Source: Elusimicrobiota bacterium
GTDB taxonomy: Bacteria; Elusimicrobiota; Elusimicrobia; F11
Direction of reading: 5' to 3'
Assembly: GCA_022072025.1 (NCBI GenBank)
Contig: JAJVIP010000010.1
Coordinates: forward strand, 178,050-242,049
DNA: 64,000 bases
Shown in pieces: positions 30,722 through 61,800 of this stretch. Numbering within the stretch: position 1 is the stretch's first letter; each line of letters begins with the position of its first letter. Below the pieces are notes generated by a model, which had not been told where the DNA came from, did no database searches, and saw nothing but the letters and a program-made list of their open reading frames with translations. Position numbers and translations under genes: made by a program.

Positions 30722-30750
30722 TTGACAATAATTCAATCCCCAGTTCTAAT
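30722..30750 (+). promoter_or_regulatory. Candidate sigma70-type promoter for the HK/RR operon
   Basis: TTGACA at 30722-30727, 17-nt spacer, TCTAAT at 30745-30750, about 22 nt upstream of ATG 30773. Judged by consensus match only. Confidence 0.35.
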
Positions 30751-30772
30751 TTGTGTAAGATTCACCCCTTTT

Positions 30773-34519: not shown

Positions 34520-34535
34520 CCCCAGTGCTTGCCGG

Positions 34536-36110: not shown

Positions 36111-36122
36111 TAATATAGGTTA

Positions 36123-37379: not shown

Positions 37380-37492
37380 CATTCAGCCTCATCAACCAAC
37401 ACCGACGGTTTTTGATGATTCAGGCGGGTTTTTTAGGGGTTTCTCTTATGACAAAAGGAATAAGTGTTTCAGACCTTTTGACATCGACGTTT

Positions 37493-37864
37493 TTAGCGGA
37501 GTTTTTCGTAACTTTTTTGACTTCCGTATTGGAGACATAAATTCCGGAAGGAATCTGATTCAATGTCGATGTTGTTTTCCTTGATCAGCGCCGCAATATC
37601 CAGCAAATCTTTTAATTCCCGTCTTTCCGGATTTTGTTTGATGGCATGCAACTTCATTGCGATAAGATGATCTAAGCTTGGGACAATAAAAGGCTCTCCT
37701 GAAATCGTGATTTCCTGGCCATCCCTGATGACGGCTTTTAAGGTTTCTTCATCAGTGAACAAGAAATCGATGTCTTTCGTCTCCCGAGAAAATTTGTAGT
37801 GATTCACAGCAAATCCGCCGATCAAAACACTCGGTAAATTTTTTTCACGAAAGAGCCGCCCCAA
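37493..37864 (-). CDS. Small nucleotidyltransferase-fold-like protein (AbiEii/MNT-like motif); candidate immunity or accessory gene of the giant ORF
   Basis: 123 aa, TTG start 22 nt after the giant-ORF stop, same strand; LIGGFAVNHYKFSRETKDIDFLF resembles the GG..A......R.T.DIDF nucleotidyltransferase motif. Confidence 0.45.
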   Translation of the reverse strand: MGRLFREKNLPSVLIGGFAVNHYKFSRETKDIDFLFTDEETLKAVIRDGQEITISGEPFIVPSLDHLIAMKLHAIKQNPERRELKDLLDIAALIKENNIDIESDSFRNLCLQYGSQKSYEKLR

Positions 37865-37886
37865 TGTTTTAACAACATCAAAAAAG

Positions 37887-40800
37887 TCATTTGTGCGAGT
37901 CTATATATTTGTGACTAACAAGGTGTTTGGCCCGTTTGCGGTCCCACAGGGGGGTGCGGCAGCGGAGCAGGGCCCACAACGAGAAAGGGCCGGAGAGGGC
38001 GGATGCTTCCTCTGTTCCACCCAATAAGTGAAGTTCACCGGTGAATTGCGCCCATCGGAGGCGCTCCAAGGATACCTGGGCCAGGTGAACGCGCCCGTCA
38101 GCCCCCCGCACCTCGAGCCGAATGGCGTCTTGATCAGAAGCGCCCACCCAGAAGAGGGTCGTTTCACCGGTCGCGAAATAAATGACACTGGGCAAATTCA
38201 ACGAAGTGCCATGGCTCTGGGCAAACTTGGTCATGATTTTTCGATGGGCCCAAACGTCTTCGGGCGTGGGCGCGAACCGAGCCAAACCTCTAAACGATTG
38301 AGGCCAGCCCCCATGGGTGTGGAAGGGAACGAAGGGCCCGGTCAACTTTTCAAAGTCAGAATCATGAACCACGACGCTCGTGGGAGAATTGAAAACAGGC
38401 GAAAAGAACACAATGCCATCGTCATTCCCGCGAAGAAGAATCGCTCCGGCTCTTTCATGTTCAAAGAGAGTCGATTTCTTCAGGGAAGGAGCAAGTGCAT
38501 AAGATCTAAATTCCTCCATTTCTACGGCTGGCCGGATAGGGGCGGGAATGAGCCCCCCTGCCCCCGCTCCCTCCCTCACCGTGACATCAGCTTTGGGCAA
38601 GGGATTTAAGGGGAAAGTGGACGTACCGGTGAGAGAGACGGCCACCCCATATTCTTGGTCTCCTCTCTTTTGGACACTCAAAAGGACCGGTGAATACTGC
38701 CCCTTGTTGTCCTGTCGAAGGGCCAACTGCCATTGGTTGTCATCACGCGGAGAATTTTTAAGCAAGGTGGTGATTTGCTCCCACAGGTTCGATCCCGGAA
38801 CCAGCGAGTCAATCAATTTGCTCAAAGCCGCGATTTTTCCTTCAGGCAAGGTCAGGATGGCTTTAAGAACTTGAACATCTTCGAGGGGAACCACCTCGCT
38901 TAACGAAACGTCGGACCGCACATAGGCTTGCCCCAATTCCATGGGCACCTTGGAGGCCAGTGAATCCATTGTAAGCGAGACGGTCGTTTCTTTCGCTCCC
39001 AACAAAATCTCTGTAAATGCCATCACACCAGAAAGAATGGGATGGACAATGTCGTCTATAGCGAATTCTTCTCTGGGATCTACATCGAAAAGAGTTTTGA
39101 ATTCGGCGCCTACCGACAACAAGGGAGTCACAGCAGCCTCATCAGCTCCTTCAAGCGCTTTCGTCACAAACGGAGTGGCGATCTTCAAAGCAAAGTCGGA
39201 CAATCGGGCTGACAAAGAAACCCCTCCTTTGGGCAAAACGGCGGTTGCGGCCAGACCGTCCAAGCGGAGCAGGCTGCCCGTTTTGATGTCGCCTCTTGTC
39301 CCAATCAAGGTGGCTTTTCCGGCGCCTTGGGCCCGCAACATCCCCACCCCCAGAGGCGTGGCCATCAAGGCGGTCCCTCTGAACCGTTTCACCGCGTCTG
39401 GCAAGACCAGGGTCCCTTTGTCCCGGTCAAAAGAGGCGAAATACAAATTCCCTCTCGCGGTCATGATCAAAACCCGTGTTCCATTATCCGGGCCTGCCAC
39501 CAAACTGGAACCCGCGAGACTTTGAAGAATGCTCGCGATGGCAGGTCGCCCGCCGGACAAACGAAATACCGGGAAAGAACGCCCGCCAATCTTCACGCGA
39601 CTGTCAAAGGTGGCGTTTACAGGGCCTCCAGGCCCCAACAACACAAAACGGTTCATCTGAAGATCTCCGAGATCAACCGAAGAATTGGTTAAAACAAAAC
39701 CATTCGCGGCAACATTTATTTCCACCTTCTTCAAAAAGAAACCTTCTTCCGCATTACCCTGAAAAACTCCATAAAAGGTTGGTTGACCTGTGGGACTTTC
39801 CGGCAATTGCGCGCCCAAAGTCATTCCCAAAACCATGGCCAACTCTCGGTCCTTGACTTGAAGACCTTGAGAGGTAACCTGGGCCGGCACCAAACGTCCT
39901 CCCACACGGAATGACACTTCACTTCCAACCCGATACACTTGAACTCTGAATTCACCTGGACGAACAGTGGCCTGTTGGACCGTCACCGTGTTGTTTCTTT
40001 CATCCACCTCGACAGATACGGGTTTATTGGGAACAAAATCCGGGGATTCAATTTGTAACAGTCCCTTGATTCTTTGGAAGAGAGAAGGAGATTGAATCCA
40101 AACAGGGTTTCCTGTGACTCTCGGACCGGAGGGTTCTTTTGAACGCGCTTTTTCTTTGGATTCTTTGGAAGGTTCAAGCCGACTCGTTTTGAGCGTTGTA
40201 AGAGACGAGGGTTTGCTGGACGTAAACAAGGGCCTACTCATAAGAAATGAGGCCAAGCCACTGACAATGGACGGACGGTCGCTTCCAAACAGAGGAATGA
40301 GGAATGAATCCAGCCCTCCCAAGAGGGGAACCGTCTCTCCAACCCCTTTAGGACTTGCCGCCTCTTCCCTTGCTCCGGCTGAGGAGGCCTCATCTCCAAC
40401 AAGGGCCGGGAAGAACGCCATCCCAAAAGGAGATGAAAGGGCCGCGGCCAAGGCCCCTGGCAAAAGAGAGGCGGACTCCTCTTTCGGTTTCTCGGCCTCT
40501 ACAGGTTCAGGCGCTCCGTCTTTTTTGGCGATGGGCCCTTCGGTTTTTCCTTCGCCTGAGGGCCGGACGCTGGAATCTCGACGGCGAGGTGTTTCGGGCC
40601 GTTCTTGCCGTTGGGGCTGCCTCAGCGTTTGGATCTCCACCCCTTCCCGCGTTCTCACGGCGCCCACCCGCACTTTTTCACCGCCGACGGGTCTCAACAT
40701 TTTTTGTATGGCTCCCGCGAGAACAACCGCATTTTTCCTGACCAACAGAAGGCCGTCTTTCCCCACCACCGCCTCCATCGTTACTCTCCGAACCTTGAAC

Positions 40801-43800
40801 TCCAGAACGGTTCCTTCTTTCAGGAATCCCTTTGGACCTTTTAACTCCTTGTTATCAGTGACCAATCGCAAACGTCCATCGCCGAACCTTAACTGAGACG
40901 ATCCAAAACGCACCGGAATGGTTTCTTTCACGAGAGGTTTGGGTTTCTTGTCGGTCAACCGGGCGTCGGGATGAATTTTTTCCACGATAGCCTTGCCTTC
41001 AAGCACTGAATCCCCCTCTTTGGGAAGTGATGCGGCTTCGGCTTTTTTGTCTTCAATGGTTTTGACCAAGTCTTCCACGAGAAAATCCGGGACCAAAGGC
41101 CCCACAATATCCAGACCCCGCGAAATCCACGATTTGGCCATTTCAAATATTTTGGGAACGATTTTTTCTTCGGGACTGAATTCTTTTTCCAGGCTTGTCA
41201 TTTCGTCCGTCGACAACCCCAGATCGGTGGAGATTTCTTTGATCGAATCCTCATCGCCCCGGATGAGCGCTTGAGCCAACATTTCGATTTCAACCTTCAC
41301 ACTCTCCGGGAGCGGTTCTCGACGCGCCTTTTCAACCAAAGAACGAACCTGGGCAATTTCTCTGGCGGTGGGGGCTCGAGGTGACGAGGCCCTCTCTGTT
41401 TTGGGCCCCGGCGCTTCTACGGATCCCGGAGCGGCCTCGGCCCCTTTTTCCTCGGGCTCAGGATCTTTAAAGAAACCAGTGATGTCGTCAATTAAGTCAC
41501 CAATCCAGTCCTTCAAGAGACGAGTCATCCTTCGAGCGGGACTGTTGGTCCATATAGGATTCCAAATCCCGCTCTGGAAAAGGCGGCCGCCCTCCGGTAA
41601 GCCCCAGGCAGCAATCGCGGGCAGATAATAATAGGGATCATGTGCGAAATCTTCGGGGTCCCGCGTTATATCTGGTGGCCTCCGTTCAATGCGTCCCCCT
41701 CCGTTGTTCACTGGGGTGTGATAACGGGAGATCATTTCGATATCCTGGTGTTCAACATTTTCCCCACCGCCAGCGCCCACCTGCCGATTCAAAATGGGAT
41801 TATAAAACCCAATGGGGGCCCCCAAGAACAACGATCCCACTCCCGAAGGACCGTAATACAGATCCGACAAACTCGCGCCGGGTAAATTTCCCTCATAGCG
41901 CCGGCGGCTCACATGTTTTACATAGGGAGTCATGACACCTGCCTGCGTGAGATTTGCTCGATAGTCCAGGGTGAGCGAGGCTCGATATTTTACAATGGCC
42001 TCATACAGCTGTTCCGTCATGGGAGTTGCCCCTCGCCTGTCGTCACCATTGATATCGGGGTCCTCATCTCCTTGGAGAGTGGGGTTCAGCGGATCGCCAA
42101 AGGGATCAAACAGGCGGCGGCTAAATACGGTTTCATGGGTGTAAACATAATAATCAGCCTCTTGGTTAAACCAATGGGCGAAGAGAGGAAAACCCCCGAT
42201 AGGATCGACGAGATTGGGATTTCCCGAAAGTTGATTGAGTGAGAAATGAACCACTTTTTGTCGTTGATCAATTTGTTTGAGAACGTCTCCGTCATATTTT
42301 CGGTCTTCCACTTTGAAGAGCTTAAAGTAATCTCCATAGAACCGAAATCCATTGCCCAAATTGATTTCCTGCCAGCCAATAAACTCCATGTGGTTTACTT
42401 TTTGGGTGAGGATCGGATCTCGGTTCGACGTGAGTTCCCATTTTTCCGTGTAATGATTGAGGATGGTTCCATCCCGATCGGCATTGCCCAGGGTGCCATA
42501 ATAGGGGGCGTTACCACCGGCCAAATCTCCACCAACGGAACGGACCAACTGAGACACCGATTGGAACGAACCCGGAGCGAACCCAAACCAAACCGAGGAC
42601 TGGAGCACCTTGACGTCAATACTGGCGGACCCGTCCATTCGGGTGAACAGAAGTCCTTGCGCGTCATATTCATATTTTCGGTCCACAACAGTGTAGACCG
42701 GCACCACATTGGCTCCGGGCCCCGCCACCCCAAAAAAGCCCACGCCTTCATATTTTTGTTCCCGCACATTTTCCATGCGGTAATGCTCGCCAAAATCCCG
42801 CACCATGGAGGTTTCGGTTTGGTTCCACCAATTGTTCTGTGAAAACAATTGGCCTGTGCGGCTCACACTAAAAGCAAAATCCCCTTGGCCGTTCGCGTTT
42901 CGGACATAGGTTGTTTCGGTCTCGCTGACAAGTCCATTCGAATTACTTTCACTGAACGCCTTCAACACCTGTTCGCCCACCCAACGGTAAATGCCGTACT
43001 GGTTGTAGCCTTTGGCGGTGGAAAAGTTACGGACATTGGGAAGCGTGACCGCCACGCCACCGCCGTCCGTTCCCGTTTCGTTGAGATACCAGGCGTTCCA
43101 GGTTCGACTTGTCCACCCGTCTGTGGCTCCGGTTTGACCGAACAAGTTGAAGGTGCGGTTTATGAAACTCACCGTCTCCGTATAGGAGGATTGATAATTG
43201 TTGAGGGACGCGCTGATGGTGTCGGTGCGAACGGCATCCATAAACCCAAACAAGCTGCGGTGATAGGTTTGGGACAACGACCGCGTCCAAGCGCCTTGGC
43301 TCGGGAACGCATCCCCGGCTGCGGCTCCGCCGGCGTTCACGGGAGGATTAAAAGTGTCTCGAATGGAGTTGGTAATTTTGTCGATGGAGTTCCCCACCGC
43401 GTTGTAACGGTACGCCGATACGCTTGAGCCGGTGGTGATCGACTCCACGCGCCCGGCCACCGTCATGATTTCGTTCGAGGTGCTGCTGTCCATATCCACC
43501 ACGCGTTTGCCCGCAATGTTAATGAAGGTCACAAAAGATCGTGAATTGCCCGTGTGGGAAACGGGCAGGCCCACCGGGCTGATTTCCTGTTTATCAAACA
43601 CCACATTGCTTTCTGTAAACCCATTGATGAACTCGGCGTTCCACGGGTTGTAAAAAAACCGCGACACACGGGTGGCCCGGGTTTGATCAATGGGATACCA
43701 ACCGGTCAAGTTCACGCTCGTGCTGTCGTTCACTTCTTCAAACACGTCGCGCATCAAATTCGTGTTGCCGATCACGCGACTCACGCGAAGCCCGTTGTTT

Positions 43801-46800
43801 TCGGTCGTGAGAACGCCATTTGAAAAACTGCGATCGTTGAATTCCGTGCGGTTCTCAAAATTCACATTAATGGGGAAATAGAGCCCCCGATCATTAAAGA
43901 CATCGTCAACCAGGGCCCCCATAAACCAGAGGCTGATCTCAGGCCCCCGCGGCAAGGAGGGATAGAGCCAAAGGGCGCTGGTCGCCGGTCCATCCCCCCA
44001 AACGACATAATCGGCCATATCCCATCCGACTGGAATTTGATCGGTGGTGTCATATTCATAGTCGACCCAGTCCGGCATATAGGTATGGTAATGACGCGTC
44101 ACCGCCCGGGACTGATTCCAATCTCCTCGAATGTTGGACCCGCTGGATTCAATAAGTGATTCATAAGGAACCGGGGCCCCAAAGGCAATAATGTATTGGG
44201 TAAGAACGGAATAGGCATTTGAGTACACCAGGCCGTCACCGCCGAACCCCGATGACGCCCCAAGCGACCCCGTGATACGTCCGCCCGAATCCCAGCTTTG
44301 CCACAGCGTGTCGAAATTGATGCTCCAGGAACCATCCACGCGCCGGCTTTCTGAACGGGTGGACGTCCCGATGGGACGGGCCTGTCCCGCATAAATACCG
44401 TAAGAAACAGTCGAAAAACTGGAATAGGTATTGCCCCAAAAATCGGTTCCAAACGAATTTCGATTTCCCCACACTTCCGCTAATTGGTCCCGCTCATCAT
44501 AAAAATAGCTGGTCAAACTGTAATTGCTCCCGTAATTGTTGTCCCGCCGCATAAAACCGCCTTGGCTGAGCACCGATATCACCTTGAACCTTCCATGCAG
44601 CAGGACATAACTGGTCCGTGAAAGCGCCTCCCACGATTGGTTCCCAGAACCGTCATTGGTGGCGCTGGTTCCATAGGCCACCTGATCCAAGAGACGCCCA
44701 TTCGTTTCGTAATCGGTATAGGTCAAGTTGGTGGAGGCGGTGATGGACCCGCTCATCGACCTGGACTCTGAATCCACACGGGTCTCAATCGACCTAGCCT
44801 GGCCGGCGATAATCCCAAACAAAGTGTGGGTCACGGCGCGCGAAATATTTCCCCATCCATCATTGGTTTTGCTGCTTCCCAACGAAAAAGCGAAATCCAA
44901 TAAATAATAAGCGCCCACTTTTTTATATCCATAGTGCATCGCGCTTTCCGACCAAGAGAGCGATTGATCCATCGCCGCGTGTAAATTGTTGCTCAACGAC
45001 AACGAAATCTTGAGCAATCCTCCCACCGCAATATAGGTGTCTTCTCCGATGCCACGATCGATGTTCCCATACCCGTCGTCGGATCTCGATTCACGGGTGC
45101 CCTTGCCCCCCTCAAGCACGCCGTCATCAGAATAGAGGGTTCGCGAAATATTCTTGGAGAGTTGTGAGGACCCGTCGAAAAAATTCCCTAAGGATAATGT
45201 GCCGCTGACCGTCTGCTTGGAGTTCCCAGCGATGTTCTCCGATTGGGACAGGGTCCAGGCCGTGCTTACGTTCTCATATCCGTCGTCAGAGGTGGAGGTG
45301 TTGCGGCTGCTGGAAGTGATGCGGCGGGGCAAAGCGCCTGAGGACATGAACCAATTTAAATTGACGCTGTCGGAAATGCTGGACGATCCATCGGTATTAA
45401 AGGATTCAACATGGGACTGGCTTAAAAATGTTTTGATGGATCCCGCCATCAATCGCAAGTCCACCGTCACCCTCCGGTCTTGCGTGTTGCCAAAGAGGTC
45501 AGTCGTGATCGAATCCCCTCCGGTTTGAACCGCTCCGGTCATATTGCCTTCCTCATCATAGTGATATTGGGTGCGCGCCCGATTTTTGGAAACCGTGCGG
45601 GTTCCGTCCGTGCTTTCACCCAGAGTCTCACTCAGTGAATAGTCCAACTTGACCAGCGTTTTGATCACCCGGTAAAAAGATTCGGTGTTGGTGTCACTCG
45701 TATTTCCGAAACCGTCATCGTTGCGAAGTCGGCTCCAACTGTGTTGGTCTTTTAAACGGCCCACCGCGTCATATTGATATTCGGTGAAATTTTCTCCGTT
45801 GAGTAACGTGAACGAACCATCGTTGTTGTCCGACTCGATGCCTGTGACCAACTGCTCGGTGAGCCGCGCTTCTTTTAAAACGATCTCAAAGTTTTGAATG
45901 AAAGATTGTTTCTGTTTGTTGCCATGGGCGTCTTCGGTGAGAGACCAGCCGGAACCCGTGGTGCTGAGCGCCGGGGCCACGGAAGGGTCAAACACACTGA
46001 TCACCTCCACCTCGCTTTCCTGGCGGTTTCCGTCAATCAATTGGGTTTTTGAGGAGGTCTTTCGAATTTCGGCTCTTTGTTGGCCGATGGTTTGCCACAC
46101 CACAGCCGAAAGCTGTTGCTCCACTTTGCTTTCACTCAAACTCCGCCAAGCGAAAGAATTTTGGGTCGATGTTTTATCGGTGAAGTTGTAGAGGAGCTGG
46201 CTTAAATCGTCGATTACGCGTTTATTTTTGGTTTGGCCCATCAAGGAGGTGATTTTCCCCGCCACCTCCACAAACGTTCCGCCCGCGTTGAGGATGGCGG
46301 TCACCGCGGGATCCAATTCAGGATCTCCGAGCAACCGGTCCTCGATAACTTTCAAGAACGCCCGGTTCGGTCCCGATTCTTGTTCGCGGAACAAGGCTTC
46401 CACCACTTGACCTTCGAAATCAAAGTTGAGAGTGTTCTTCCATTCGTCCAGGTCCGGCATGGCTTCGATGCGCTGGATCACAAAATCATAAAAATCGTCA
46501 TAGCTGGTGTTGTCCGCGTTGTGGGTGTCCAGCCAATCCTCCAGCGAGGTTTGAAAGTCGTTTCGGACTTTCAACACTTCCGAGAAATCCGGATTCCAAA
46601 GGGGTTGGGACAAATCATTTCTCAAGATGCCGCCCAATCTTTGTTCGGCCGGACTCAAGGGGTCCAAATCCGTGAATCGATCAAACACATCGATGACCGA
46701 CTGAACGGCCTGATCCATGTCGGCTTGATTGATGAATTCCCTTTTTTTGTACATCTCTCCGCTCTCCGATTCGCCGGTCGAAAGCGGGGCTTTTTCGGTC

Positions 46801-49800
46801 GGCCGACCCAACAGGTCGAAGGCTCCCTGCCCCAACACCGTGTTCACGGAACGATTGAAGGTATGGTCCGCTTGGAACACCGGAGTTTCATAGCGCCCTC
46901 CGCCCCAATCCGGGTTTTTGAGATCATTGTTGATGAGCGTGTTATCGGAACTGAAGGACCGCGTGATCACCTTGTCAAAAGCCATTTTTCCGGAGAAGCC
47001 CCAAATATCGCCTTGATGCGTGGTTTGACTGATGGACTTTTGGAACCGCGCTCCGTCAAAATTGAGATACCAGGAATCGATCACCGGCGCGTGAGCCGCA
47101 TGAGGTTGACCACTGGTCTCCTTCCAACTGTTTTCATAGGTGGTTCGACTGAAACCCCGGAACCAGGTGTCATTTTCTTGCACAAACGGAATTTCAAAGG
47201 AGCCCTCACCCCATTCACTGTCAATTCCAAGGGTTCCCGATTTCTTTTTATCGTTGCTCGAGAAAATCAGGGATCGGCTTTCCTTGAGCCGAACGATTCC
47301 CAACGAACGCCACAGGTCATCGCGGTTGTCTTGCTCCAATATCACTTTATTGAACCCTACGTTATGTCCTTCCCCAATGCCGCTGTCGCTCCAACTCCAT
47401 CCAGTGGAGCGTGGCGCCAATTCGGTGGGTCGGCCCATCACGCCGAATTCTTTGTGAGTGGAACCCACGTAATCGGTTTTGATCGAGGTTCGGGAACGGC
47501 TGTCATCAAAAGAACGAACCGGATCATCAAACGTGCCGCCGCCGAAAATAATCGTGGCGCCACGTTCGCCAAAAAGGGCGGCGTCAGCTTCAGTTCCCTG
47601 CTCCGTCCAATCGGAGCTGTAGGACCTTGATTCCGTGGATTCCAAAACCAAGCGGCCCAACGTGTTCCAGAAGAAAGGATCATTTTTTTGGGTGGACCGC
47701 GCCGCGGTGTAGGAAGTCAGTCCATCAAAACTCCAGTTCCAAGAAGACACCGTGGGCAACGCGTCGGCCACCAATTTTCCGGTGGCGGCGTCAAAGGAAC
47801 CCGCGTAGGTGGTGCGCGCATAACTGCGCGAAAGAGACCGATCGTCCTGCGCCGCGGGGTTCCCAAAGGTGCCGTTTCCTTGACGATCGCTCGACCAAGA
47901 CCGAACGGCGCTCTCCACCAATCGCGTGAGGCCGGTGTTTTTCCAAATGACATCGTCATTTTTCTGCGCGATCTCTGAAGCCGTGAACCCCGTGTGTCCG
48001 GTTTCACGGCCCGCGGGAATTCCATCAAATGACAGGGACTTTCCAAAGGCCGTGGGCGCCTTATCCGTCAAGCGCCCGGTCACGGGATTGTAGCTGTCCT
48101 TAAAGGAGGTGGTGAATTCCGACGTGCTCCAAGAATCCGTCACGTGCGCGACCGGATTCTCCAGCGTGCCCTCGCCATATCGTTTGGTTTTCCAGGCGTC
48201 CTCAAAGGTCCCCCCTTCTTTTCCATTCGAGGAGAAGGAGCGGGACGTGCTCTCCAACACAAGCGCCCGGCCCAAGTGGTATTGAACGGACCCGTTGTAT
48301 TTTTCAATTGAAATGGATTTGGTGAAGGTGTTGAAACCATCGAAACTTAAATTCTCGGATTCCAAGAGTCGCGGAGCGTAAGTTTGATCTTCGATATCGC
48401 CGCTTCCGCGCTCCACGCCGCCGAATTCATTCCAACGGGGCCGGTTGTCTTGCGCCCGATAACTGCGGGCATAACTGCCATCGGCATTCAATTTAAATGG
48501 ATCATCGTAACTGCCCTCACCTAAATCGTTCGATGAGAAACTTCGCGTGATGGACAAACCGTCCCGCTCCACGCCTTGGTTTTTCCAAATGTCTTTTGCC
48601 GACTCCACGCGAAATTCGGATTTGTTGTATCCAAGTGTATTGTTCGGCAAATATCCGTCATAGGAGAGACTGGTTCCCACCGTGACCGGAGCTTTATCGG
48701 TTGGACGTGAAGATTCCAGGTCATAAGCCCCCTCATACAGCCGTTTGCTTTCGCTCTTGTTCCAGCCTCCCGTCATTTGGACCGCGGGCCTGTCATAACT
48801 GCCCCCGCCATAAACCAACAGGCTGCTGTAATCGATCACATCTCCATGAGAATCCTTCACAAGAATGGGTTTTTCAAACAATGCTTGCGCCTCCCAAGTC
48901 GACGCGGCGTTATCCGAGGTCCAATTGTGCGAGGTGACTTCCAAGGCCAACGCTTTTCCAAAGCGGTTCCACAAAACAGAATTAAATTTCGTGCTGGATT
49001 CGGACCGCGAATAATTGGCCACCCCGTCAAAACTCCAACTGCCGCTGTGGTTCACAGGAACACCGTCGGCCTTTCGATTGATGGCGCCGATGACCGTTCG
49101 ATCCCCGTCGGAAATCACCTGATCCCCATCCACATAACTGTTGGAATAGTCGGTGACGGACCAGAACCGCGTCGACTCGCCCGTCTCCATTTCCACCGGC
49201 GATTCAAAACGGCCGCGCCCTTCTTTGTCGGAGCTATAGCCGATTGACACTTCTATGGTTGAACGCAAAAGCCCCGTGAGTTCCCAAATTTTTTGGTTGT
49301 GGGCTCTGTATATCTCACTTTTGGAATAACCCACATTGATGCCAGGAAGAGCCAAGCCATCAAAACTCAAACTCCATCCTTCTGTCCATGGCGTGTTGGT
49401 CCCGATGGCCTTGGAGGTCGTGAGGTCATAACTGTTGGTGTAATGGGTCACCAAATGGTTTTTGCTCCAACTGCCGTCTTTTTGCGGCGTGGGATTGGAA
49501 AAATTCCCCAAACCAAAAGCGGGCACCCGGTTCATGTCCACGAACCCTCCGACGGCGTCTCGAACGACCAAGGTTCGACCCAAGGCTTGATCCGCCTCCC
49601 ACGGAGCCGCAGAATCATCGCTCGAATAACTGTCCACCACGCTTTCCGAAAGCAATGTTTTGCCAAACCGGTTCCAGATGTCCACGTTAAATTTCTGGGT
49701 AATGTCGGTTCGTGTGTATTGATGGAAACCGTCAAAACTCCAACTGCCGCCTTTGACCACCGGCACGCCCTGGGCGGACCGGTTAATGGCGCCCAGATTT

Positions 49801-52800
49801 TTTCGCCATTGGGAAGGCGCCACTTGAACCCCATCAATATAACTCGAGCTGTAGTCGGTGACCGTCCACGATCTGAATTGACTGCCGTCGGCGGAAGAGA
49901 GGGAGTTCAAATCATGGTAATCGCCCTCTCCCGCGGCATTGGAGTTGAAGCTCAAAGACACCGACGAATCCAACCGCAAAAGACCGGCCGCGTCCCACAG
50001 ATGAGAGTTGTAGGTTTGATATATGAGACTCTTGGAATATCCCAATCCCAAATGGAGAAGAGCGGTTCCGTCAAAACTCAAACTGAACCCTTCCGCCCAG
50101 GGTGTTGAAAGTCCCGTCGGAAGAGTCGTGAGCGGATCATAGCTGTCTTGATAATGGGTGATCATTTCGCTTTTGGTCCAGCTCTCATCGCCCTGTTGGA
50201 GCGGCGACTCAAAGGATCCGCCACCGATCACCGCGATGTTGTTGTAATCAATTAAACGTCCTTGCGAATCCCGCCCCAATAGAGGCACGCCGAACTCACG
50301 ACCCGCCTGCCAGGTGTGCGCCTGATCATCAGAGGAGAAACTTCGAACCACCGAACGCGCGAGCAATGTTTTTCCGAATGTGATCCAGAAGGTCGGATCA
50401 AAAATTTGTTCGTTTTCAGACACGGTGAAATGTCCTTGGCCGTCATCGCTCCAGCCGCCCCCTTTGACCACCGGAACCGCGGCCGCCGTTCGGTTGACCG
50501 CGCCCGCTTTGGGGCCTGACTTGATCCACGCATTTTCATAACTCGTCACATTCCAGGAACGAGACCGGGTGTCATCGATGCCCCGATGCGGCTCCATCAG
50601 CGAACCCGCCTGACCCTCATCGGAGCTGTGGCTAAAATTAAAAGAGGCCTTGAGCCTCATTTGACCGGTGAGTTCCCAAATATCGTCATGGAACACTTGG
50701 TTGATGTCGGTTCGCGTATATCCAAGCCCGAGTCCCGGCAAAGAGAGCCCGTCAAAACTCAAGGACCATCCTGTTGAATGGGGCGCCACCGCGGTGGGCC
50801 GCGCGCTGTTTAAATCGTAACTGTCGTGGTAGCGGGTCGTGATTTCGCTTTTGTTCCAACTCAAATCGCTTTGAGAAAGCGGCGCGTCAAAGGTCCCTTT
50901 TCCAAACACGATGGTGGAACTCAAATCCAAAGACTGCCCAAAGGCGTCTCGAACCAAAACCGGCGATCCCGACAAGGAGGCCACATCCCAGAGACTCGGC
51001 AATTCATCACTGGAATAACTTCGGGAAACGGTCTCCAACATCAAGGTCTTGCCATGATTGATCCAGAATCTGGGATCGAATGTTTGCGCGGTATCGGTTC
51101 GGGTGAAACGCCCAAAACCGTCGTCACTCCAAGAGCCGCTCGACCCCACAGGCGTTCCCGCTTCAGTTCGGTTCACCGCGCCCGCCTTGGGCCCTCCAGT
51201 CACCCACGCATTGTCGTAAAGCAGAACGCTCCAAGAGCGGGATTGTTGACGGTCAATCCAAGGAACGGGTTGTTCAAAGTTGCCGGCTCCAAATTCATTG
51301 GAGGTCCAATTAAAATTCGCGTTCGCCTGAGTGCGCAACAAGCCCGTGGACGCCCAAAGCGCGCTGTTGTAGGTGGTATAACTCACTCCATGCGTGTGAC
51401 CGGTTCCCGGCATGAGACTGAGGCCGTCGAAGGAATGGGTTTCTCCTTCGCTCCACGGCGTGTGTTCAAAGGCGCCATCAGAAAAGGGTTTTGAGGTGGT
51501 TTCATCATAGGCGGTTTCGTAATGGGTGGTGATGCGGCTGCCATTCCAACTGTCATCGCCTTGAGCCACCGCTCCAAACAAGTTCGCGGGATTCACCTGG
51601 CCGCGGACCTCCATTTCCGTTTCAATTTTGATCTCTCCCGCGGCATCGCGGAACCGGATGACCCTCTCAGGGCTAAATTCCGCGCCCGCCCGCCAGAGAA
51701 CTTTTTTATCTTCGGTGGTTCCCGATGTTGTTTCAGTGAGGAACGCCACCGTCTTCCCAAAATTTTTCCATACGGCCTTATTGAAATCGGTTCGGGTCAA
51801 ACTTCGCGTGAACGTTTTAAACCCATCGAATGAAAACCCCCAGGACCAACTTTGCGGAACCCCCGAATCGGTTCGATTGACGGCGCCCATTTCTCGTCCG
51901 GAAGTTACCCAGGCATTGGCATAACTGGTGATGTTCCACGCCGCGTTGTAACTGTTGTCCGCGGCGCGAACGGGATTCTCAAGACTCCCATCTCCGGCCG
52001 CGTTCGACGTCCACGTTTTGCTGATGGATTGTTCGGTGCGCAGCAGGCCCCCCAAGGCCCAAAGCAGGGAATTGTACGTAGTATAGATGAGGCCATGGGT
52101 GTGGCCTTGGCCCGGCGCGAAACTGAGCCCGTCAAAATTGTGGGTTTCACCCTCTGACCAAGGGGTGTGTTCAAAGGAACCATCCTCATAGGGACGGCTG
52201 GTCGCTTCATCATAGGCCGTTTCATAATGCGTGGTCACGCGGCTGCCATTCCAACTCTCATCGGTCCCCGCCGCCGCGCCAAACAAATGGTCATTATCGA
52301 CGGGACCGCGAACCGTCATTTCGGTTTCGTTTTTGATTTGGCCATCGGCCTCCCGAATGAGCACTTGAAGCCCGGGATCAAACGCGGCTCCGACCCGCCA
52401 CGTATAAGGAGCCACCACGCCGTTCTCTCCCCGCGTGGAGGCTGAGATCGACACGCTTTGAGCCGCCACGGTTTTCCCAAATTGGGCCCATATATTTTTA
52501 TTAAAGGTTGTTTCAGTGAATGTTCGACTGTAGGAGCGGATCCCGTCAAACAAAGCGCTCCACGACACACTGGTGGGGGTGCCCAGCGCGCTGCGGTTGA
52601 CGGCGCCCAATTGGGATCCTTCGGTGATCCAGGCTTCGCTGAAATTGGTGACGCTCCAATTCATATTGCTGCTCCCGTCCAATTGAAAGACAGGATTGTC
52701 GATGGATCCCTCCCCCACCGCGTTGGACGACCAAGATTTATTGACGGACGTGAACGTTCGAAGCAGTCCCGCCCCTTTCCAAATGTCGTTGTTGTAGGTG

Positions 52801-55800
52801 GTATAGAGCACACCGTGCGTATGGCCTTGACCGGGGATGGGGCTCAAGCCGTCAAAATTGTGGCTCTCCCCTTCGCTCCAAGGGGTTCGTTCAAAGGACC
52901 CCTCTTTCCATGGTTGAGAGGTGCTTTCATCATAGGCCGTTTCGTAATGGGTCACCACGCGGCTGCCATTCCAACTGCCGTCGCTCTGCGGAAGTGCCTG
53001 GAATAAATTCGGATTGGCGCTCTCATCGATGGGCCCGCGGACCCGCATGCGAGACTCGTCATAGATATCGCCAACCGCGTCGCGGAGACGAACCCGAATA
53101 TCCGGATCAAATTGAGCCCCGACATTCCATTCATAGGGGTCTGCGATTCCATTGTCTCCGGCGGTGGTTCCGCTGACGGTTTCACTTCTCAATAAAACCG
53201 TTTTTCCAAACTGACTCCAGATGTTGTCGTTGAAAAGGCTGGTGGTGAGGCTGCGCGTATAGGTACGCAGACCGTCATAGGACACGCTCCATGAAAATCC
53301 CTTCGGGGTTCCCTGGCCGCTGCGGTTGACCGCTCCCACGTTATCGCCTTGCGTCACCCACGCGTCTTTGTAATTCGTCACACTCCAGGAAAGCGTGGTG
53401 GTGTTGTCCGTTTGGAAAATGGGCTCATTGATATTTCCCTCGCCCGCCGCATTGGACGACCAGGTTTTGCTCACATTGGAATCGGTGCGCAGCGTCGCGG
53501 CCCACTTCCATATTTCCGTGTTGTAAGTTGTGTAGATGAGACCATGGGTGTGGCCTTGACCTGGAACAAGAGAAAGACCATCGAAGTTATGACTCTCTCC
53601 TTCCGACCAAGGCGTTTGATCGAAACGGCCCTCTTGATAATGCCGGCTGGTGGCCTCATCATAGGCCGTTTCGTAATGAGTCACCACACGACTGCCGTTC
53701 CAACTGCCGTCTCCTTGCGGCAAGGCCTGATACAGATGGGGGGTCGCGCTGGTATCAATGGGGCCTTTAACACGGAGCAGGGTTTCATCGGTGAGGTTGC
53801 CTCGCGAGTCACGGGTTTTGAGGGTGAGGCCCTCTCCCAAACTCTGGGCCACATTCCACTGCCAATCGTTGATACGGCCTTGGTTGCCCTGCGTGGAACT
53901 TGACGTGCTTTCGGTTTGGCGAATCACCGTTTTTCCAAACCGGCTCCAAATGTTGTCGTTGAAATAACTGTGGGTGAGGGTGCGTGTGTAAGACCGCAAG
54001 CCGTCATAAGAAGCGCTCCACGTCGCGCCGGTGGGAGTTCCGCTCCCAGACCGGTTCACCGCGCCAGCGGCATCGCCAGAGGTGATCCAGGCATCTTTGA
54101 AATTCGTCACACTCCAAGCCACAGAGGTGCTGTTATCTTTCTGGGCGAGGGGATACTCAATATCGCCATGCCCCGCCGCGTTGGACGACCAGGTTTTGCT
54201 CAATGAGACATAGGTTCTCAGCACGGCCGCAAGCGCCCAGATCTCCGAATTATAGGAGGAGTGGGTGGTTCCATGCGTGTGGCCTTGTCCGGGAATGGAA
54301 CTGAGCCCATCAAAAGAATGGGTTTCGCCTTCGCTCCAAGGGGTGTGGAAATCCGCATTTTGGTAGCCGGCATCTCCTTCCTTCCACGGCCGCGAGGTGG
54401 CGGGGTTATAGGCCGTTTCATAATGCGTCACCACCCGGCTGCCGTTCCAACTGCCATCTCCTTGGGCCACCGCGTCAAACAAATTCCGGGAATCCACCGC
54501 CCCACGAACCGTCATCACCGTTTCATCGATCACGTTCCCATCGGCGTCTCGCGTTTTAATGAATACGCCGGGAGAAAACTTCCCGCCGACCGCCCAGGAA
54601 CTCGCCTCATCCCGGCTGCTGGAAGAAACAGATTCAGACGTTCGCGCCACAGTTTTTCCAAACTTTTTCCAAATCTCGGAATTAAATTTCGTTTCGGATT
54701 CACCTCGCGTGAATGTTTTAAACCCATCGTAATTAAAACTCCACGCCCAGCTTTGGGGAGTGGCCTCATCCGACCGATTGACGGCCCCGGCTTTGGCACC
54801 CGAGGTGATCCACGCGTTTCCATAATTGGTCACACTCCAGCTCAAATTCATGCTGTTGTCCTCTTGATAAATGGGGCGCTCCAGGCTTCCCGTCGATCCG
54901 TCCGCATGAGTATTCGTGGCATTCGAACTCCAACTCTTCGATACCGAATTGTCCGTTCGTAAAATCCCCGCCAACCGCCAAACCTCTTGGTTGTAGGTGG
55001 TCGATACAACCCCGTGGGTATGGCCCTGTCCTTCCAGCAGGGAAAGACCATCATAACTGTGCGTTTCTCCCACGCTCCACGGGGTATGATATTCAGCGCT
55101 TTCATACCCCACGTCGCCTCTCTGCCAAGGACGGGACGTCTCTTCGTTATAAGCGGTTTGGTAATAGGTGGTCACGCGGCTTCCATTCCAACTCTCATCG
55201 CCCTGGGCCACCGCCCCGTACATATTGTTTTCGTTCACCGTGCCGCGCACTTCCATAACGGTTTCATTGATGATTCTTCCATTGGCATCGCGCGTATAAA
55301 TGGACACATCCGGATCAAACTGACGCCCCGCGTTCCAATCATGGGTTTTGTTTTCGCTGGTGGCCGAGGTGGTTTCGGTTTTCAACAAAACGGTTTTTCC
55401 AAACTTCTTCCAGAGGTTGTTGTTGAATTCGGTTTTGGATTCGCTGCGCGTAAAGGTTCTAAAACCGTCGTAGGAAAAGCCCCACGACCAACCTTGGGGT
55501 GTGGCATTGTCTTCTCTGTTGACCGCGCCTGCCTTGTCACCGCTCGTCACCCAAGCGTTTTTGTAATTGGTGACGCTCCAGCTCAGGTTCGTGCTGTTGT
55601 CTATTTGCGCGAGCGGGTTCGTGATGCTCCCCGAGGTCCCGTCAGAAAGTGTGTTGGTGGCGTTCGAACTCCAACTTTTGCTCACAGAATTTTCTGTCCG
55701 CAACAGGCCCGCCCACCGCCAAACGTCTTGATTATACGTGGTGAAGATCATGCCATGGGTGTGGCCTTGACCCTCTTTGAGCAAGGGGGAGGTGTCGATG

Positions 55801-58800
55801 GCGCCAAGACCATCATAGCTGTGGGTTTCCCCTTCGCTCCAAGGTGTGCTCTCAGGAGAACCGTCTTGATGCGGGCGACTGGTTTCTTCATCATAAGCGG
55901 TTTCGTAATGCGTGACGATGCGGCTTCCGTTCCAGCTTTCATCGCCCTGAGCCACCGCATTAAATAGATTTCGCGAATCCAAGGCGCCCCGAACCTGCAT
56001 CCATGTTTCATCCCGAATAACACCATTCGCGTCTCTTGTCTTAATCGTGACATCGGGGTTGGACAATTCGCCCACTTTCCATTGGTGTGCCTCATCCCGG
56101 CTTGTGCCCGATTCGGTTTCGGTTCTGAACACCACCGTTTTTCCAAAACGCTTCCAGAGGGCGCGGTTGAATTCACTGGTTGATTGACTTCGCGTGTAAG
56201 TCTTAAAACCGTCGAAGGAGAACCCCCACGACCAACTGGTGGGAACCGCGTCATCGGTTCGGTTCACCGCGCCCGCTTTGGCTCCGCTCAATATCCAGGC
56301 GTTTCGATAATGGGTGACGCTCCAACTTAAGTTTGTGCTGTTGTCAGATTGATGAAGCGGGTTCGTGATGCTGCCGATGCCGTCCAACGGATGGCTGTTA
56401 TTGGCGGTGGAACTCCAACTCTTGCTTACGGAATGGTCGGTTCTTAGCAATCCCGCGTTTTTCCAAATTTCTTGATTGAAACTCGTAAAGACCACCCCAT
56501 GGCTATGCCCTTGTCCCTCCACCACCGAGAGTCCATCGTAGCTGTGGGTTTCGCCTTCGCTCCACGGCGTGTGGTGTTCCAAACCTTGGAAACCAAGGTC
56601 GCTCTCCTGCCAGGGGCGGGACGTCTCCACGTTATAAGCGGTTCGGTAGTGAGTGGTCACCCGGCTCCCATTCCAACTGCCATCGCCCTGAGAAACCGCG
56701 CCATACAAATTGTTTTCATCGCGGTCGGAATCCAACCAACCTCTCACTTGCATCAGGGTTTCATCTCGAATCACACCGTCTTGATCGCGTGTGCGAATGG
56801 AAAGGGGAAGACCAGCCGCCTGCGCCACGTTCCAGGTTCTTTCTTCATTCGCGCTTGTGCCCGAGGTCGTTTCAGTCTGGTAAATAACCGTTTTTCCAAA
56901 TCTCTTCCATATCTCTTTGTTGAAATCCGTTTTGGATTCGCTGCGCGTAAAGGTTCTAAACCCATCAAAGGAGAAACCCCACGACCAGCTTTGGGGCGTC
57001 GCGTCGTCCAATCGGCTCACGGCGCCGGCCTTGTCACCGCTTGTCACCCAAGCCTTGCCGTAATGGGTCACACTCCAACTTAAAGAAGTGCTGTTGTCCG
57101 ATTGATGGAGCGGATTGGTGATGCTGCCGATGCCGTCCAACGGATGGCTGTTGTCGGCGGTGGAGCTCCAACTCTTGCTCACGGAATTGTCGGTTCTTAG
57201 CAGCCCAGCGTTCTTCCAGATCTCTCGGTTGAATGTGGTGAAGGTAACCCCATGGCTATGGCCTTGGCCTTCCACCACCGAGAGTCCATCATAACTGTGG
57301 GTTTCCCCTTCACTCCACGGCGTGTGTTCAAAGGAACCGTCTTGGTGCGGGCGGCTCGTTTCAAGGTCGTAAGCGGTTTCGTAATGCGTGACGATGCGGC
57401 TTCCGTTCCAACTCTCGTCGCCTTGGGAAACCGCGCGGAACTTGTTGTTTTCGCTCACGTCACGGTCCAACAACCCGCGAACCCGCAGGCGCGTCTCATC
57501 TCGTATCACGCCTTCGTGGTCACGCGTGCGAACCGTCACGCCGGAACCGAACAATTCTCCGGTATCCCAATCTCTTTCTTCATCCCGGCTGGTGCCCGAT
57601 TCGGTTTCGGTTCTGAACACCACCGTTTTTCCAAATTTTTTCCAAATCTCCTGGTTGAATTCTGTTTTGGTTTCGCTGCGGGTGGTGGTTTTGAAACCAT
57701 CAAAGGAGAATCCCCACGACCAGCTTTGGGGCGTCGCCTCGTCCAGTCGATTCACCGCGCCAGCCTTGTCACCGCTTGTCACCCAGGCATTTCTGTAATT
57801 GGTCACACTCCAATTTAAATTGGTGCTGTTATCGGATTGGTGAAGCGGGTTTGTGATGCTGCCCACCCCATCCACAGAATGAATATTTGTCGCGGTGGAA
57901 CTCCAGCTTTTGCTCACAGAATTGTCGGTTCGCAGCAGGCCCGCGTTTTTCCAGACCTCCTGATTGTAAGTGGTGAAAACAACGCCATGGGTATGACCTT
58001 GGCCTTCCACCACCGAGAGTCCATCATAGCTGTGGGTTTCCCCTTCGCTCCACGGCGTGTGTTCGAAGGAACCGTCTTGGTGGGGGCGGCTCGTTTCCAA
58101 GTCGTAAGCGGTTTCGTAATGCGTGACGACGCGGCTGCCGTTCCAACTGCCATCGCCTTGTGAAACCGCGTCATATAAATTGTTTTCGTTTCGGTCCTCA
58201 TCGAGAAGTCCCTGGACCCGCATCGTGGTTTCGTCGATAAGCCGACCGTCTTTGTCACGCACCCGAATGATCACATCGGGATCAAAAGCGCGACCCACGT
58301 CCCAATTGCGTTCTCCTGGCAAACTGGTGCCGGAGGTGGTTTCCGTTTTGAGCACCACCGTTTTTCCAAATTTCTTCCAAATCTCCGAGTTGAATTCTGT
58401 TTTGGATTCGCTGCGCGTATAGGATTTGAAACCGTCAAAGGAGAAACCCCAGGACAAACTGACAGGCGTGGCGTCATCCGCGCGGTTGACAGCGCCCGCT
58501 TTGTCGCCGCTCGTGACCCAGGCATTTCGGTAATTCGTCACGCTCCAATTTAAAGAAGTGCTGTTGTCGAGTTGGTGGAGCGGATTGCCAATGCCGCCTT
58601 GGGTTCCGTCTGGAAGCGTGTTGGTGGCATTCGAACTCCAACTCTTGCTCACGGAATTGTCGGTTCGCAGAAGTCCCGACAAACGCCACACCTCTTGATT
58701 GTAAGAGGTAAAGGTGACCCCATGCGTGTGACCTTGGGCTTCTTTGAGTTGCGGTGAGGTCTCAATGGCTCCCAGGCCGTCAAAGCTGTGAGTTTCGCCC

Positions 58801-61800
58801 TCACTCCAGGGCGTGTGATATTCGCTGTCCACAAATCCCCGTTCACCACTCTGCCAGGGCCGGGACGTCTCGCTGTTGTACGCCCGCTCGTAGTGGGTGG
58901 TGACGCGGCTTCCATTCCAACTATCGTCCCCTTGAGAGACCGCGTCGAACATATGATCTTCACCCACGTCTTCGTCGATGAGCCCTCGAACAAGCATTTG
59001 GGTCTCGTCCATAATGTTTCCATTGTTATCTCGAATTTTAATGTTCACGCCCGGGTCCAACGCGTCCCCAACATTCCATTGTCTCTGCGCGTCGCGGCTG
59101 GTGGCCGACGTGCTTTCAGAACGCGACAACACGGTCTTCCCAAATCTTTTCCAAATCTCTTGGTTGAATTCGCTTTTGGAGGTGCTTCGCGTGTAGGTTT
59201 TAAATCCATCAAAAGAGAAACCCCAAGACAGGCTCACCGGCGTCGCGTCATCCGACCGGTTGACGGCGCCGGCCTTGTTGCCGCTCGTGACCCAGGCGTT
59301 TCGGTAATTCGTCACGCTCCAGTTCAAGTTCGTGCTGTTATCGGATTGGTGAAGCGGGTTCGTGATGCTGCCGAGGCCATCCTCCGAATGAATATTTGTG
59401 GCGGTGGAACTCCAACTCTTGCTCACGGAGTTTTCGGTTCGAAGCAACGCCGCTTGTTTCCATATCTCTTGGTTGTAGGTGGTGAACACCACGCCATGCG
59501 TGTGGCCTTGACCTTGAAGCGCGCTTAGCCCGTCAAAGTTGTGGGTTTCGCCTTCACTCCACGGCGTGTGATTTTCCTGAGACACAAAACCCGCCTCGGT
59601 CTCGCGCCACAAATGGGAAGTGGTTTCATTGTAAGCCGTCTCATAATGAGTGGTCACACGGCTGCCGTTCCAGCTATCGTCTCCTTGAGCCACCGCCCCA
59701 AACATGTTGTTGGGATCGATGGCGCCTCGCACGCGCATCACCGTTTCATCCCGTATCACGCCTTCTTTGTCGCGCGTTCTAATTGTGACGTCCGGAGTGG
59801 CCTTTGACCCCACCGACCATTCGGCCTCTTGATTGGCGCTGCTTCCCGATGTGCTGGTGGTTTGTCGAAGCACGGTTTTTCCAAATTTCTTCCAAATTTC
59901 ATTGTTGAATTGGGTGGTGGACTCGCTTCGCGTATACGTTTTGATCCCGTCAAAGGAAAAACCCCATGACCAACCTTGAGGGGTGGCATCGTCTGTGCGG
60001 TTCACCGCGCCCGCTTTGTCGCCACTGGTGATCCACGCCTTCTGATAGTTCGTCACACTCCAACTCAAATTCGTGCTGTTGTCGGACTGAGCGATGGGGT
60101 TCTCCAGGCTGCCCGCTGTTCCATTCGCGAGCGTGTTCGCGGCATTCGAACTCCAACTCTTGTTCACAGAATTTTCAGTTCGAAGGAGCCCCGCCAACCG
60201 CCACACGTCTTGGTTGTATGTGGTGAAAATGACGCCATGCGTGTGGCCTTGACCCTCCACCACGGAGAGCCCATCATAACTGTGCGTTTCACCTTCGCTC
60301 CATGGCGTGTGTTCAAAGGTTCCGTCTTGATAGGGCTTGGCGGTAGCCGGGTCATAGGCATATTCATAATGGGTCACCACACGGCTGCGGTTCCAACTCT
60401 CATCGCCTTGCGCCAAAGCCCCATATTTATTGGAGGGATTGCGCCGGCCATACACCAAGGCCACGCTGAAATCAACCGTGTCGCCGCTTTCATTTCGGAC
60501 CGCCAGCCGTCGTCCAAACTCGTCGGAAAGAACCCAAGCCGTTTCTTGGTCGTCGGTGGTGGCGCTTGTGACGGTGGTTTTCAACACCACGGTTCGTCCA
60601 AACCGATTCCAAATTTCCTTGTTGTATTCGGTGTCGGTGGAGGAGCGGGTCATGGTTCTAAATCCATCAAAGGACCAGGCGAGACTTTTGGTTTTGGGCA
60701 GGCCCGCTTCAGTGCGAATGATGGACCCGATACCCTCTCCGGCCGGCGGCATAAACCGAACCCCGTCGTAATAACTCTTCGAATAGTCGGTGACCGAAAG
60801 ACTGCGTTGTTGGCTGCCGTCCAAGGCCGCCACCGGCGCCTCATAACTTCCCTCGCCATTGGCATTGGAGCTAAAACCCTGGTTGATCACGGTCTCGAGT
60901 TTCAGGCCTCCCGTCTTCTGCCAAATGTTCGCGTTGAAAGTTTGGAATATCGTGCTCTTGGAATAGCCCAACTCAAGACCTGGAAGGCTCAAGCCGTCAA
61001 AATTCAGCGACCATCCCGTTGCCCACGGCGCGACTGAAGTGGGCCTCGTGGTCTCTTCGTCATAACTGTCTTTGTAGTGGGTGATCAGTTCAGACTTGTT
61101 CCAACTCTCATCTCCTTGAACAAAAGGCGAATCAAACGATCCCCGCCCATAAACCCTCAAGGAACTGAGATCAAACGTACTCCCGTTCTCCCGTCGAACG
61201 CTGAGGGCGCGACCAAACCCTTGGACGGCATCGGTCGTATCCCAAAGGGCGGGATCATTGGAACTGGAATAACTGCGCGAGATGCTTTTCTCCAAAGACG
61301 TTCGTCCAAATTTATTCCAAATGGCTTGATTGAACTCTTGGGTGGTATCGCTGCGGGTATAGGAACGGAAACCATCGAAAGACAAACTGCCACCCAAGGT
61401 TTTGGGAAGTCCTTGTTGGGACCTGACCAACGCGCCGATCCCTTCGCCCGCCGGCGGCACGGTGTTCACACCATCATAATAGGAGGAAGTGTAATCGCTC
61501 ACCGACCACGACCGTGTGGTGCTGCCGTCAGAAGCCGGCTCAGGCGCATCAAAAGTTCCCAGCGTCCCGGTTGAATCGGTGCTCCAAGAAAAATTGGCGG
61601 AGGTGGCCAATTTGGTTTGGCCCGTGGCCGCCCAGATGTGTTGGTTAAAGGATTGGTAAAACGAACTGGCCGTGGTGCCTTGGTTGAGGCCGGGCACCGC
61701 GGTTCCGTCGAAAGACAATGAACGCCCTGTCATAAACGGAGCGAAACTTAATATTGGCGCGCCGTTTTGGGTGTTGTAAGAACGTGAAAAATCGGTGGTC

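Follow-up and report, generated by a model that had tools for sequence, protein, structure and literature searches.

What kind of protein carries a block of about 245 residues many times in tandem, and what keeps its copies alike? The question is raised by a 64,000-nt stretch of an Elusimicrobiota genome (contig JAJVIP010000010.1; hereafter, the window), in which a scan for open reading frames (ORFs) finds one minus-strand frame that stays open for 26 kb and ends in a single stop codon, 37887-37889. A sequence-only reading of this DNA described 13 near-identical copies of a novel domain, and suspected a recombination hotspot. We find instead that the repeats are old and well diverged, and cautiously favor the view that they build a predicted secreted or surface fiber. 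Elusimicrobiota and their relatives often encode giant repetitive proteins, hardly any of which has been characterized. The phylum is enriched in uncharacterized "huge proteins", encoded by single ORFs of more than 5,000 residues (PMC11573180); the ORF described here exceeds that size.

The array consists of 13 in-frame tandem units that share the anchor motif TPWS.GE. Numbering residues along the minus-strand giant ORF as seen in the window, these core units start at residues 1231, 1478, 1729, 1981, 2226, 2477, 2718, 2972, 3219, 3462, 3705, 3945, and 4180; the last was ended at residue 4404, the start of the next, diverged unit. The period is 235-254 residues, or 705-762 bp, and a DNA repeat search gives spacings of 705-774 nt. 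(Tandem Repeats Finder reported no array, because its longest period is 500.) This is the array that the sequence-only reading placed, in another phase, at 50850-60385. The preserved frame is confirmed and the sequence blocks quoted as invariant are indeed conserved, 55 of the 245 unit columns being identical throughout. Also borne out are the plus-strand shadow ORFs: 16 of at least 150 residues (156-465) lie inside the giant gene, at 40114-61574. They are regarded as antisense by-products, because the minus strand is the conserved strand under selection. Such shadow ORFs could be mis-called as genes, as occurred in one homologous scaffold (L002, below). The array is a genuine protein-coding tandem array inside one giant gene.

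A hidden Markov model built from the 13 units finds five extra full units, plus partial copies to residue 5706. The total is 18 full units, in a repeat region that spans about 46881-61742 (Table 1); SFDG-type motifs run on to residue 5647 among the degenerate units. The unit is itself composite. Its first and second halves align with an hhalign probability of 89% (E = 2e-6), and the 245-residue unit is therefore the product of an ancient doubling, its half-module being some 105-140 residues long. Half-module motifs are S[FY]DG, [FY]NxxIW (also [FY]-N-x-x-[IV]-W), and QxDxSWNxS...TxY.

The copies are less alike than they look. Pairwise protein identity among the 13 units is 41-78%, and codon-aligned DNA identity is 49-75%, so "near-identical" does not describe them. 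The closest pair, units 4 and 6, shares 78% of residues; units 4 and 5, thought to differ at about 15% of residues, differ at 26% (74% identity). Between 36% and 55% of conserved residues are encoded by differing codons. For the closest pairs, synonymous divergence (dS; Nei-Gojobori) is 1.1-1.8, which is near saturation, and the ratio of nonsynonymous to synonymous divergence (dN/dS) is 0.07-0.19. High dS together with low dN/dS indicates that every copy has long been under purifying selection. Exact repeats of at least 31 nt number only seven within the array, each of 31-44 nt; the DNA divergence therefore leaves scant substrate for homologous recombination. Long near-identical DNA and low synonymous divergence, the marks of a recently homogenized array, are both absent. 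The lesson is a practical one: coding repeats that seem near-identical by eye can be ancient, and here only assemblers working at k = 31 were defeated.

Is the unit novel, as was claimed? Neither the array nor its single units have a domain-level match in Pfam or NCBIfam; profile searches of Protein Data Bank (PDB) sequences with the unit came back empty; and a word-indexed search with one unit against 5.8 billion clusters returned nothing. Homology to cadherin, BIg, or CARDB domains, which the sequence-only reading named as evidence that would overturn its claim, was looked for by profile and by fold, and no match appeared. Some whole-sequence scores were considered and rejected. DUF7188 reaches 35.1 bits over the whole sequence, with 0 passing stretches, and 0 of 20 single units match at E ≤ 10; TRAPPC10, DUF3903, and other whole-sequence Pfam scores likewise contain 0 passing stretches. 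The DUF7188 and DUF3903 scores, the only whole-sequence ones above cut-off, are an additive artifact, since many weak repeat matches sum and none is found in single units. With no global structural neighbor for a three-unit model either (see below), the claim of novelty stands. The repeat module is new, and its fold probably is too, but the object that contains it is of a familiar type, the giant repetitive surface-type protein of bacteria. As such it could become a family model for annotating genes of this sort.

Relatives do exist. An exhaustive HMMER profile search of 1.84 billion representatives found only 28 proteins, six of them below 1e-30, and most are pieces of comparable giant genes. 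No relatives came from pattern scans of 185,579 GTDB species genomes, run once with the core-unit alignment and once with the cross-genome alignment, and a JGI metagenome scan with the unit found one 2.2-kb contig. Judged by these searches, the family does exist, but public data contain very few members. The best relative, P0001, is a protein of 5,671 residues from an Elusimicrobiota metagenome-assembled genome (MAG), 31% identical over 4,570 residues; giant-gene homologs in general are 30-32% identical to the window ORF. Another giant gene is made up of P0007 (3,433 residues) and the ORF upstream of it. The homologous giant gene of scaffold WOOD18-1 scaffold_93 (L002) has a gap of Ns at about 9700-9800, within its array, with near-identical protein sequence on either side. 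In that scaffold the gene caller missed a 3,265-codon ORF upstream of the gap, and called small antisense ORFs instead.

A nanopore contig (ERZ26871208 contig_60284_np1212; L003/L004) carries a 13,046-residue ORF followed by ORFs of 1,445, 1,151, and 1,460 residues, all of the same family. These probably represent one gene of about 17,000 codons split by frameshift errors. The 13,046-residue product is in neither of the two protein libraries searched. By this measure full-length members may reach about 17,000 residues, and the window probably shows far less than the whole of its giant gene. Family members share an order of parts. The repeat array comes first; about 1,600 conserved residues follow, among them a few YD-like hairpins; next is a variable stretch, in places of low complexity; and last comes a conserved C-terminal domain of about 170 residues.

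How did the array grow? Within one protein, core units share 55-78% of residues; between those of the window's protein or of P0001 and any unit of a different protein, identity reaches no more than 35-39%. Peripheral units resemble the units of other proteins roughly as much as they resemble their own neighbors: no upstream flanking unit exceeds 46% identity to another unit, and the downstream ones are equally close to units of other genomes and of their own protein. Because units cluster by genome, each lineage is taken to have expanded its own array. Segments of a single unit also differ in their nearest neighbor; unit 3, for example, is closest to unit 7, then to unit 2, and then to unit 4. 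Clustering and mosaicism together are the traces expected where units were amplified in tandem within a lineage and recombined with one another. Array length would thus have been set by such amplification, through ancient unequal crossover or gene conversion, after which each copy would have been held under purifying selection. The sequence-only reading had invoked unequal crossover; this fits as history and is not supported as a present-day process, given dS of 1.1-1.8. It had also suggested measuring an identity gradient, in which most-similar central copies would point to recent expansion. A gradient is present, with the closest copies (units 2-6) lying towards the array start and identity dropping from unit 9 to unit 13 and in the flanking units. 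This supports a progressively greater age for the later copies and the flanks.

The predicted structure of the unit is dominated by β-strands. A single-unit model, with the 13 units as alignment, reaches a predicted local distance difference test score (pLDDT) of 75.7 and a predicted template-modeling score (pTM) of 0.77. A three-unit model (residues 1981-2717; 737 residues), whose alignment consisted of 16 sliding three-unit windows, reaches pLDDT 92 and pTM 0.88, and is mostly β-strand. Per unit, the prediction, which is of high confidence, comprises about eight long antiparallel strands of 9-11 residues, several short strands, and two short helices that carry invariant Trp residues. The strands have aromatic and charged residues on one face and Ser and Thr on the other, and are not aliphatic. 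Comparison with the PDB yields no global counterpart of the three-unit model among solved structures. From one to three units, the aligned length in structural matches grows from about 140 to about 200-230 residues, at a flat Z-score. The gain in confidence with neighboring units and the growing aligned length suggest that the sheet carries on across unit boundaries, and we infer from the models that strands of successive units join into one continuous, curved, antiparallel sheet. The flat Z-score, with at most 229 of 737 residues aligned, implies that the matches themselves reflect generic long antiparallel meanders. Constructs of one to three units are candidates for structural work on a long continuous β-sheet built from tandem units.

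Such an array would form a long, rigid β-sheet rod or ribbon. Provided that the sheet follows the array axis, each unit would add about 4 nm, and the 18 full units together several tens of nanometers. The rod would serve as extender or scaffold of a secreted or cell-surface fiber, in the role that repeat regions play in giant adhesins. Composition is consistent with an extracellular location. There is one Cys in 8,703 residues, compared with 0.81% Cys in 29 neighboring ORFs, and giant-protein homologs are equally Cys-poor; the array is acidic (isoelectric point 5.2), with 22% Ser plus Thr and 4% Trp; and no transmembrane-like segment occurs in the giant ORF before about residue 7,845. Cys depletion, acidic Ser/Thr-rich composition, the lack of such segments, and the non-aliphatic strand faces together suggest that the giant protein is secreted or surface-exposed. 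An anciently amplified extender of a predicted secreted or surface fiber, kept by purifying selection, is the best explanation of the array, and we hold it to be somewhat better than an even bet.

Several points weigh against this explanation. The N-terminus of the gene, where export signals would be sought, lies beyond window position 64000, and the alignment used for modeling consists of paralogous windows of the same protein. Pfam and NCBIfam scans reveal no adhesin-type or ligand-binding domain anywhere in the protein. Synteny in three genomes, described below, may reflect relatedness instead of function. As for membership in known adhesin families, a motif search finds no RTX, type I secretion, or LPXTG features; for RTX adhesins in particular, there are no GG.G.D motifs and no HemolysinCabind match, and for Ig-like (immunoglobulin-like), cadherin, and CARDB adhesins, no profile or fold matches the unit.

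One elaboration of the extender model concerns metals. All 13 core units carry WSEGE[TS]H.[FY]DG ... GH[TS]HG, within which E7, H9, H22, and H24 are invariant (13/13) and E5 is present in 12 of 13. In the models, E5/E7/H9 and H22/H24 take alternate positions on two predicted neighboring strands, E3-11 and E22-31. The zinc site of carbonic anhydrase has a comparable layout: an H-x-H pair on one strand and a further His on the adjacent strand. This suggests one candidate metal site per core unit, and 13 such sites might rigidify the fiber or bind metal or mineral surfaces. The cluster has stayed invariant despite saturated synonymous divergence, and is restricted to the core units of this lineage; the older flanking units and all homologs have W/L/Y/K-type residues at these positions. 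However, the strands on which the cluster is placed are predicted ones, no metal-binding family was matched, and the histidines may have another role, in pH sensing, in contacts between units, or in catalysis. A metal-binding array is a doubtful refinement, put at about one chance in five, although the lineage-specific His/Glu cluster offers a concrete and cheaply testable biochemical hypothesis.

A bolder version of the fiber model, which we rate as slightly less probable than the metal sites by themselves, makes the unit the founder of a new β-sheet repeat fold that would polymerize in cis into a continuous sheet tens of nanometers long. Its 13 Glu2-His3 clusters would then make a nanofiber with regularly spaced metal sites. 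Such a fiber might be stiffened by metal, might adhere to metals or minerals, or might even repeat a catalytic site along its length; its production might be tied to the cyclic di-GMP (c-di-GMP) and GspE-type ATPase module described below.

A different reading, and an improbable one, makes the protein a polymorphic toxin of the RHS/YD type, in which repeats wrap into a closed cocoon (TcB/TcC, Rhs) that delivers a C-terminal toxin. The top Foldseek matches of the three-unit model in the PDB are indeed RHS-repeat BC components, 5kis_A and 4igl_C (E = 2e-4), but with a probability of only 0.30 and TM-scores of 0.13-0.15. Residues 6074-6150, beyond the array, give a sub-threshold RHS_repeat match (20.9 bits; cut-off 22) and contain two Y.YD..G hairpins, and a homologous fragment, P0023, gives a weak RHS_repeat match. 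The array itself has no RHS_repeat (PF05593) or YD match; NCBIfam is empty, single units are blank at E ≤ 10, and a regular-expression search finds neither the core motif P....DP.GL nor DP.G[LW]. Size and variability also argue against a cocoon. The repeat region, at about 5,000 residues, is several times as long as the matched BC-component chains (1,446-1,449 residues), and copy number varies between lineages, which a closed shell would not easily tolerate. Finally, the C-terminal domain is conserved among homologs (30-40% identity in two) and is not polymorphic.

Less probable still is the proposal that the array is near-identical, acts today as a recombination hotspot with copy-number phase variation, and is likely mis-assembled. 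Mosaic units and growth by lineage-specific amplification fit such a history, and assembly trouble is real in places: a relative, L002, has its gap inside its own array, and an assembly made at k = 31 from the window's own sequencing run stops within the window's array. Logan contig SRR10609165_6580 (20,488 nt; run SRR10609165) matches the window without a difference over 12,406 nt, the part compared base by base (34974-47379); the rest was placed by length. So placed, it overlaps units 8-13 and part of unit 7, and ends at 55461, 30 nt into a 32-nt exact repeat (55432-55463) whose second copy is at 56929-56960. The array therefore breaks the k = 31 graph at the first exact repeat. (An end 30 nt into the repeat fits a de Bruijn branch point at k-1.) Against the proposal stand the DNA divergence given above, with the longest exact match 44 nt and dS at least 1.1 for every pair examined; the agreement of this independent contig, which runs by its length into unit 7; and the window itself, which crosses the whole array unbroken and whose neighboring housekeeping proteins exactly match those recorded on a 316-kb contig of an Elusimicrobiota MAG. 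The assembly hazard thus holds only for small k or for more homogeneous relatives. Present-day recombination or phase variation is probably not what the array is for.

That the units form an outer-membrane β-barrel is effectively refuted: long antiparallel strands recall one, but Z does not rise when the model is enlarged from one unit (245 residues) to three (737 residues, of which no more than 229 align), the strands have no aliphatic lipid-facing side, and the units stand in tandem in a soluble, acidic, Ser/Thr-rich giant protein.

The regions around the array add detail to the layout of the giant protein. The N-proximal modules share the motif Q.[FY]....GQA[RK]...S.S..DGS, read from the sequence, and modules of this type also occur in the upstream ORF of L002. 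The sole database match to the N-proximal region is P0029, a partial protein of "bacterium F11" with 35% identity. At the other end, the roughly 1,200 residues ahead of the C-terminal domain cannot be aligned with P0001 or P0007, the two homologs whose C-termini are complete. The C-terminal domain has the invariant motif F.PFHTH.G.P...PT..D..AH, and Pfam and PDB searches with it gave no match; its HxH...[ST]xxD pattern resembles a JAMM/MPN-type metal site, a likeness for which Pfam and PDB offer no support. A weak FimA-like PDB match in the C-terminal region was dismissed as not significant (E = 0.009). No RNA family was found anywhere in the window.

Beyond the 3' end of the giant gene lies a signaling block. 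A histidine kinase and regulator, an MshEN-T2SSE ATPase, a GAF-HD-GYP protein, and a GAF protein adjoin the giant gene in three genomes: those of the window, L001, and L002. A GGDEF regulator belongs to the block in L001 and L002, and not in the window. In Omnitrophota, giant genes are flanked by genes like those of type II secretion systems (T2SS), including gspE, and then by pilZ genes (bioRxiv 10.1101/2023.11.21.568195). By this analogy, the conserved block hints at export under c-di-GMP control, although common descent of the gene order might equally account for it. At L001 and L002 almost nothing separates the giant gene from the two-component system, and the genes at 33197-37864 in the window therefore look like a lineage-specific insertion, possibly related to defense or to mobile elements.

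Table 1. Coordinates of the giant gene, its parts, and neighboring genes in the window
Feature	Position	Strand	Remarks
Giant ORF, >8,703 codons	37887-63998	-	5' end past window edge at 64000; no start in view
N-proximal region, residues 1-752, shorter hairpin-like modules	61743-63998	-	Cut by window edge
Two diverged full units upstream of core, residues 753-1230	60309-61742	-	Unit profile 166 and 207 bits
13 core repeat units, residues 1231-4404, 235-254 residues each	50787-60308	-	
Stretch with every exact repeat of 31 nt or more (seven)	55432-58666		Repeats of 31-44 nt
Three diverged full units downstream of core, residues 4405-5106	48681-50786	-	Unit profile 154-172 bits
Degenerate or partial units, residues 5107-5706	46881-48680	-	Partial profile matches, 30-65 bits
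Post-array region, residues 6000-7300, few YD-like hairpins	42099-46001	-	30-32% identical to P0001, P0007
C-terminal domain, residues 8517-8697	37908-38450	-	30-40% identical in P0001, P0007
Short AbiEii-like nucleotidyltransferase fragment	37493-37864	-	
Two paralogous AAA_14/DUF4143 ATPase genes	33197-34519, 36123-37379	+	
Unannotated 524-residue ORF	34536-36110	-	Long hydrophobic stretches at start
Signaling block, including GAF protein	26193-32948		Also L001 17726-23783, L002 20275-28010
sCache_3_2-HAMP histidine kinase with OmpR-type regulator	30722-32948	+	
MshEN-T2SSE (GspE-type) ATPase	28847-30580	-	
GAF-HD-GYP protein	27769-28863	-	
155-residue ORF, faint PilZ match only	27240-27707	-	Part of the signaling block

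Two further observations concern other genes of the window. A second large ORF, of at least 1,113 codons (1-3339, minus strand), runs off the window start; its N-terminus resembles a signal peptide (MKIYRNQPFIVLLALLYFLTNCAFAHS), and its product is probably exported. The 384-residue pyridine-nucleotide disulfide oxidoreductase encoded at 24759-25913 (plus strand) matches Pyr_redox_2 only from position 93, and may be truncated or divergent; a full-length paralog is encoded at 3448-4773, beside glycine-cleavage genes.

How does this protein compare with known systems? With outer-membrane barrels (FhaC, chitoporin, and TonB-dependent receptors) the likeness is generic: the sheet of the unit is predicted to be unclosed and without a hydrophobic belt, and the units differ in being soluble tandem repeats. 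The RHS shells of Yersinia entomophaga YenB/RHS2 (PDB 5kis, 4igl) share with the predicted array long antiparallel β-hairpin repeats and a large curved sheet. Unlike them, the array has a period of about 245 residues and a two-level hierarchy; the Pfam RHS_repeat profile has 38 positions.

In phylum-level setting and size class, the protein resembles the giant proteins of Omnitrophota and the Planctomycetes-Verrucomicrobia-Chlamydiae (PVC) group (bioRxiv 10.1101/2023.11.21.568195) and the huge proteins of Elusimicrobiota (PMC11573180); neither source describes this repeat family. As in Omnitrophota, a GspE-type ATPase and c-di-GMP/PilZ genes lie near the giant gene. However, the protein has none of the HEAT, TPR, dockerin, thrombospondin, or glycosyltransferase domains of the Omnitrophota and PVC giants, and, in contrast with the Omnitrophota loci, there is no full T2SS-like locus within the window.

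Giant adhesin extenders offer the remaining comparison. The ice-binding adhesin of Marinomonas primoryensis has about 120 Ig-like RII repeats (PMC4083281), and F and FG repeats make up the extender region of the giant surface adhesin Embp (PMC7587433). Their modules are about 100 residues long, compared with about 245 here. The module of the array is not Ig-like, and appears to be merged into a continuous sheet rather than strung as beads; its copies are 41-78% identical, and not nearly identical as in adhesin extenders. Both kinds of array, however, stand in many tandem copies, with lineage-varying copy number, in a very large, Cys-poor, acidic protein; and both presumably serve to build length and rigidity.

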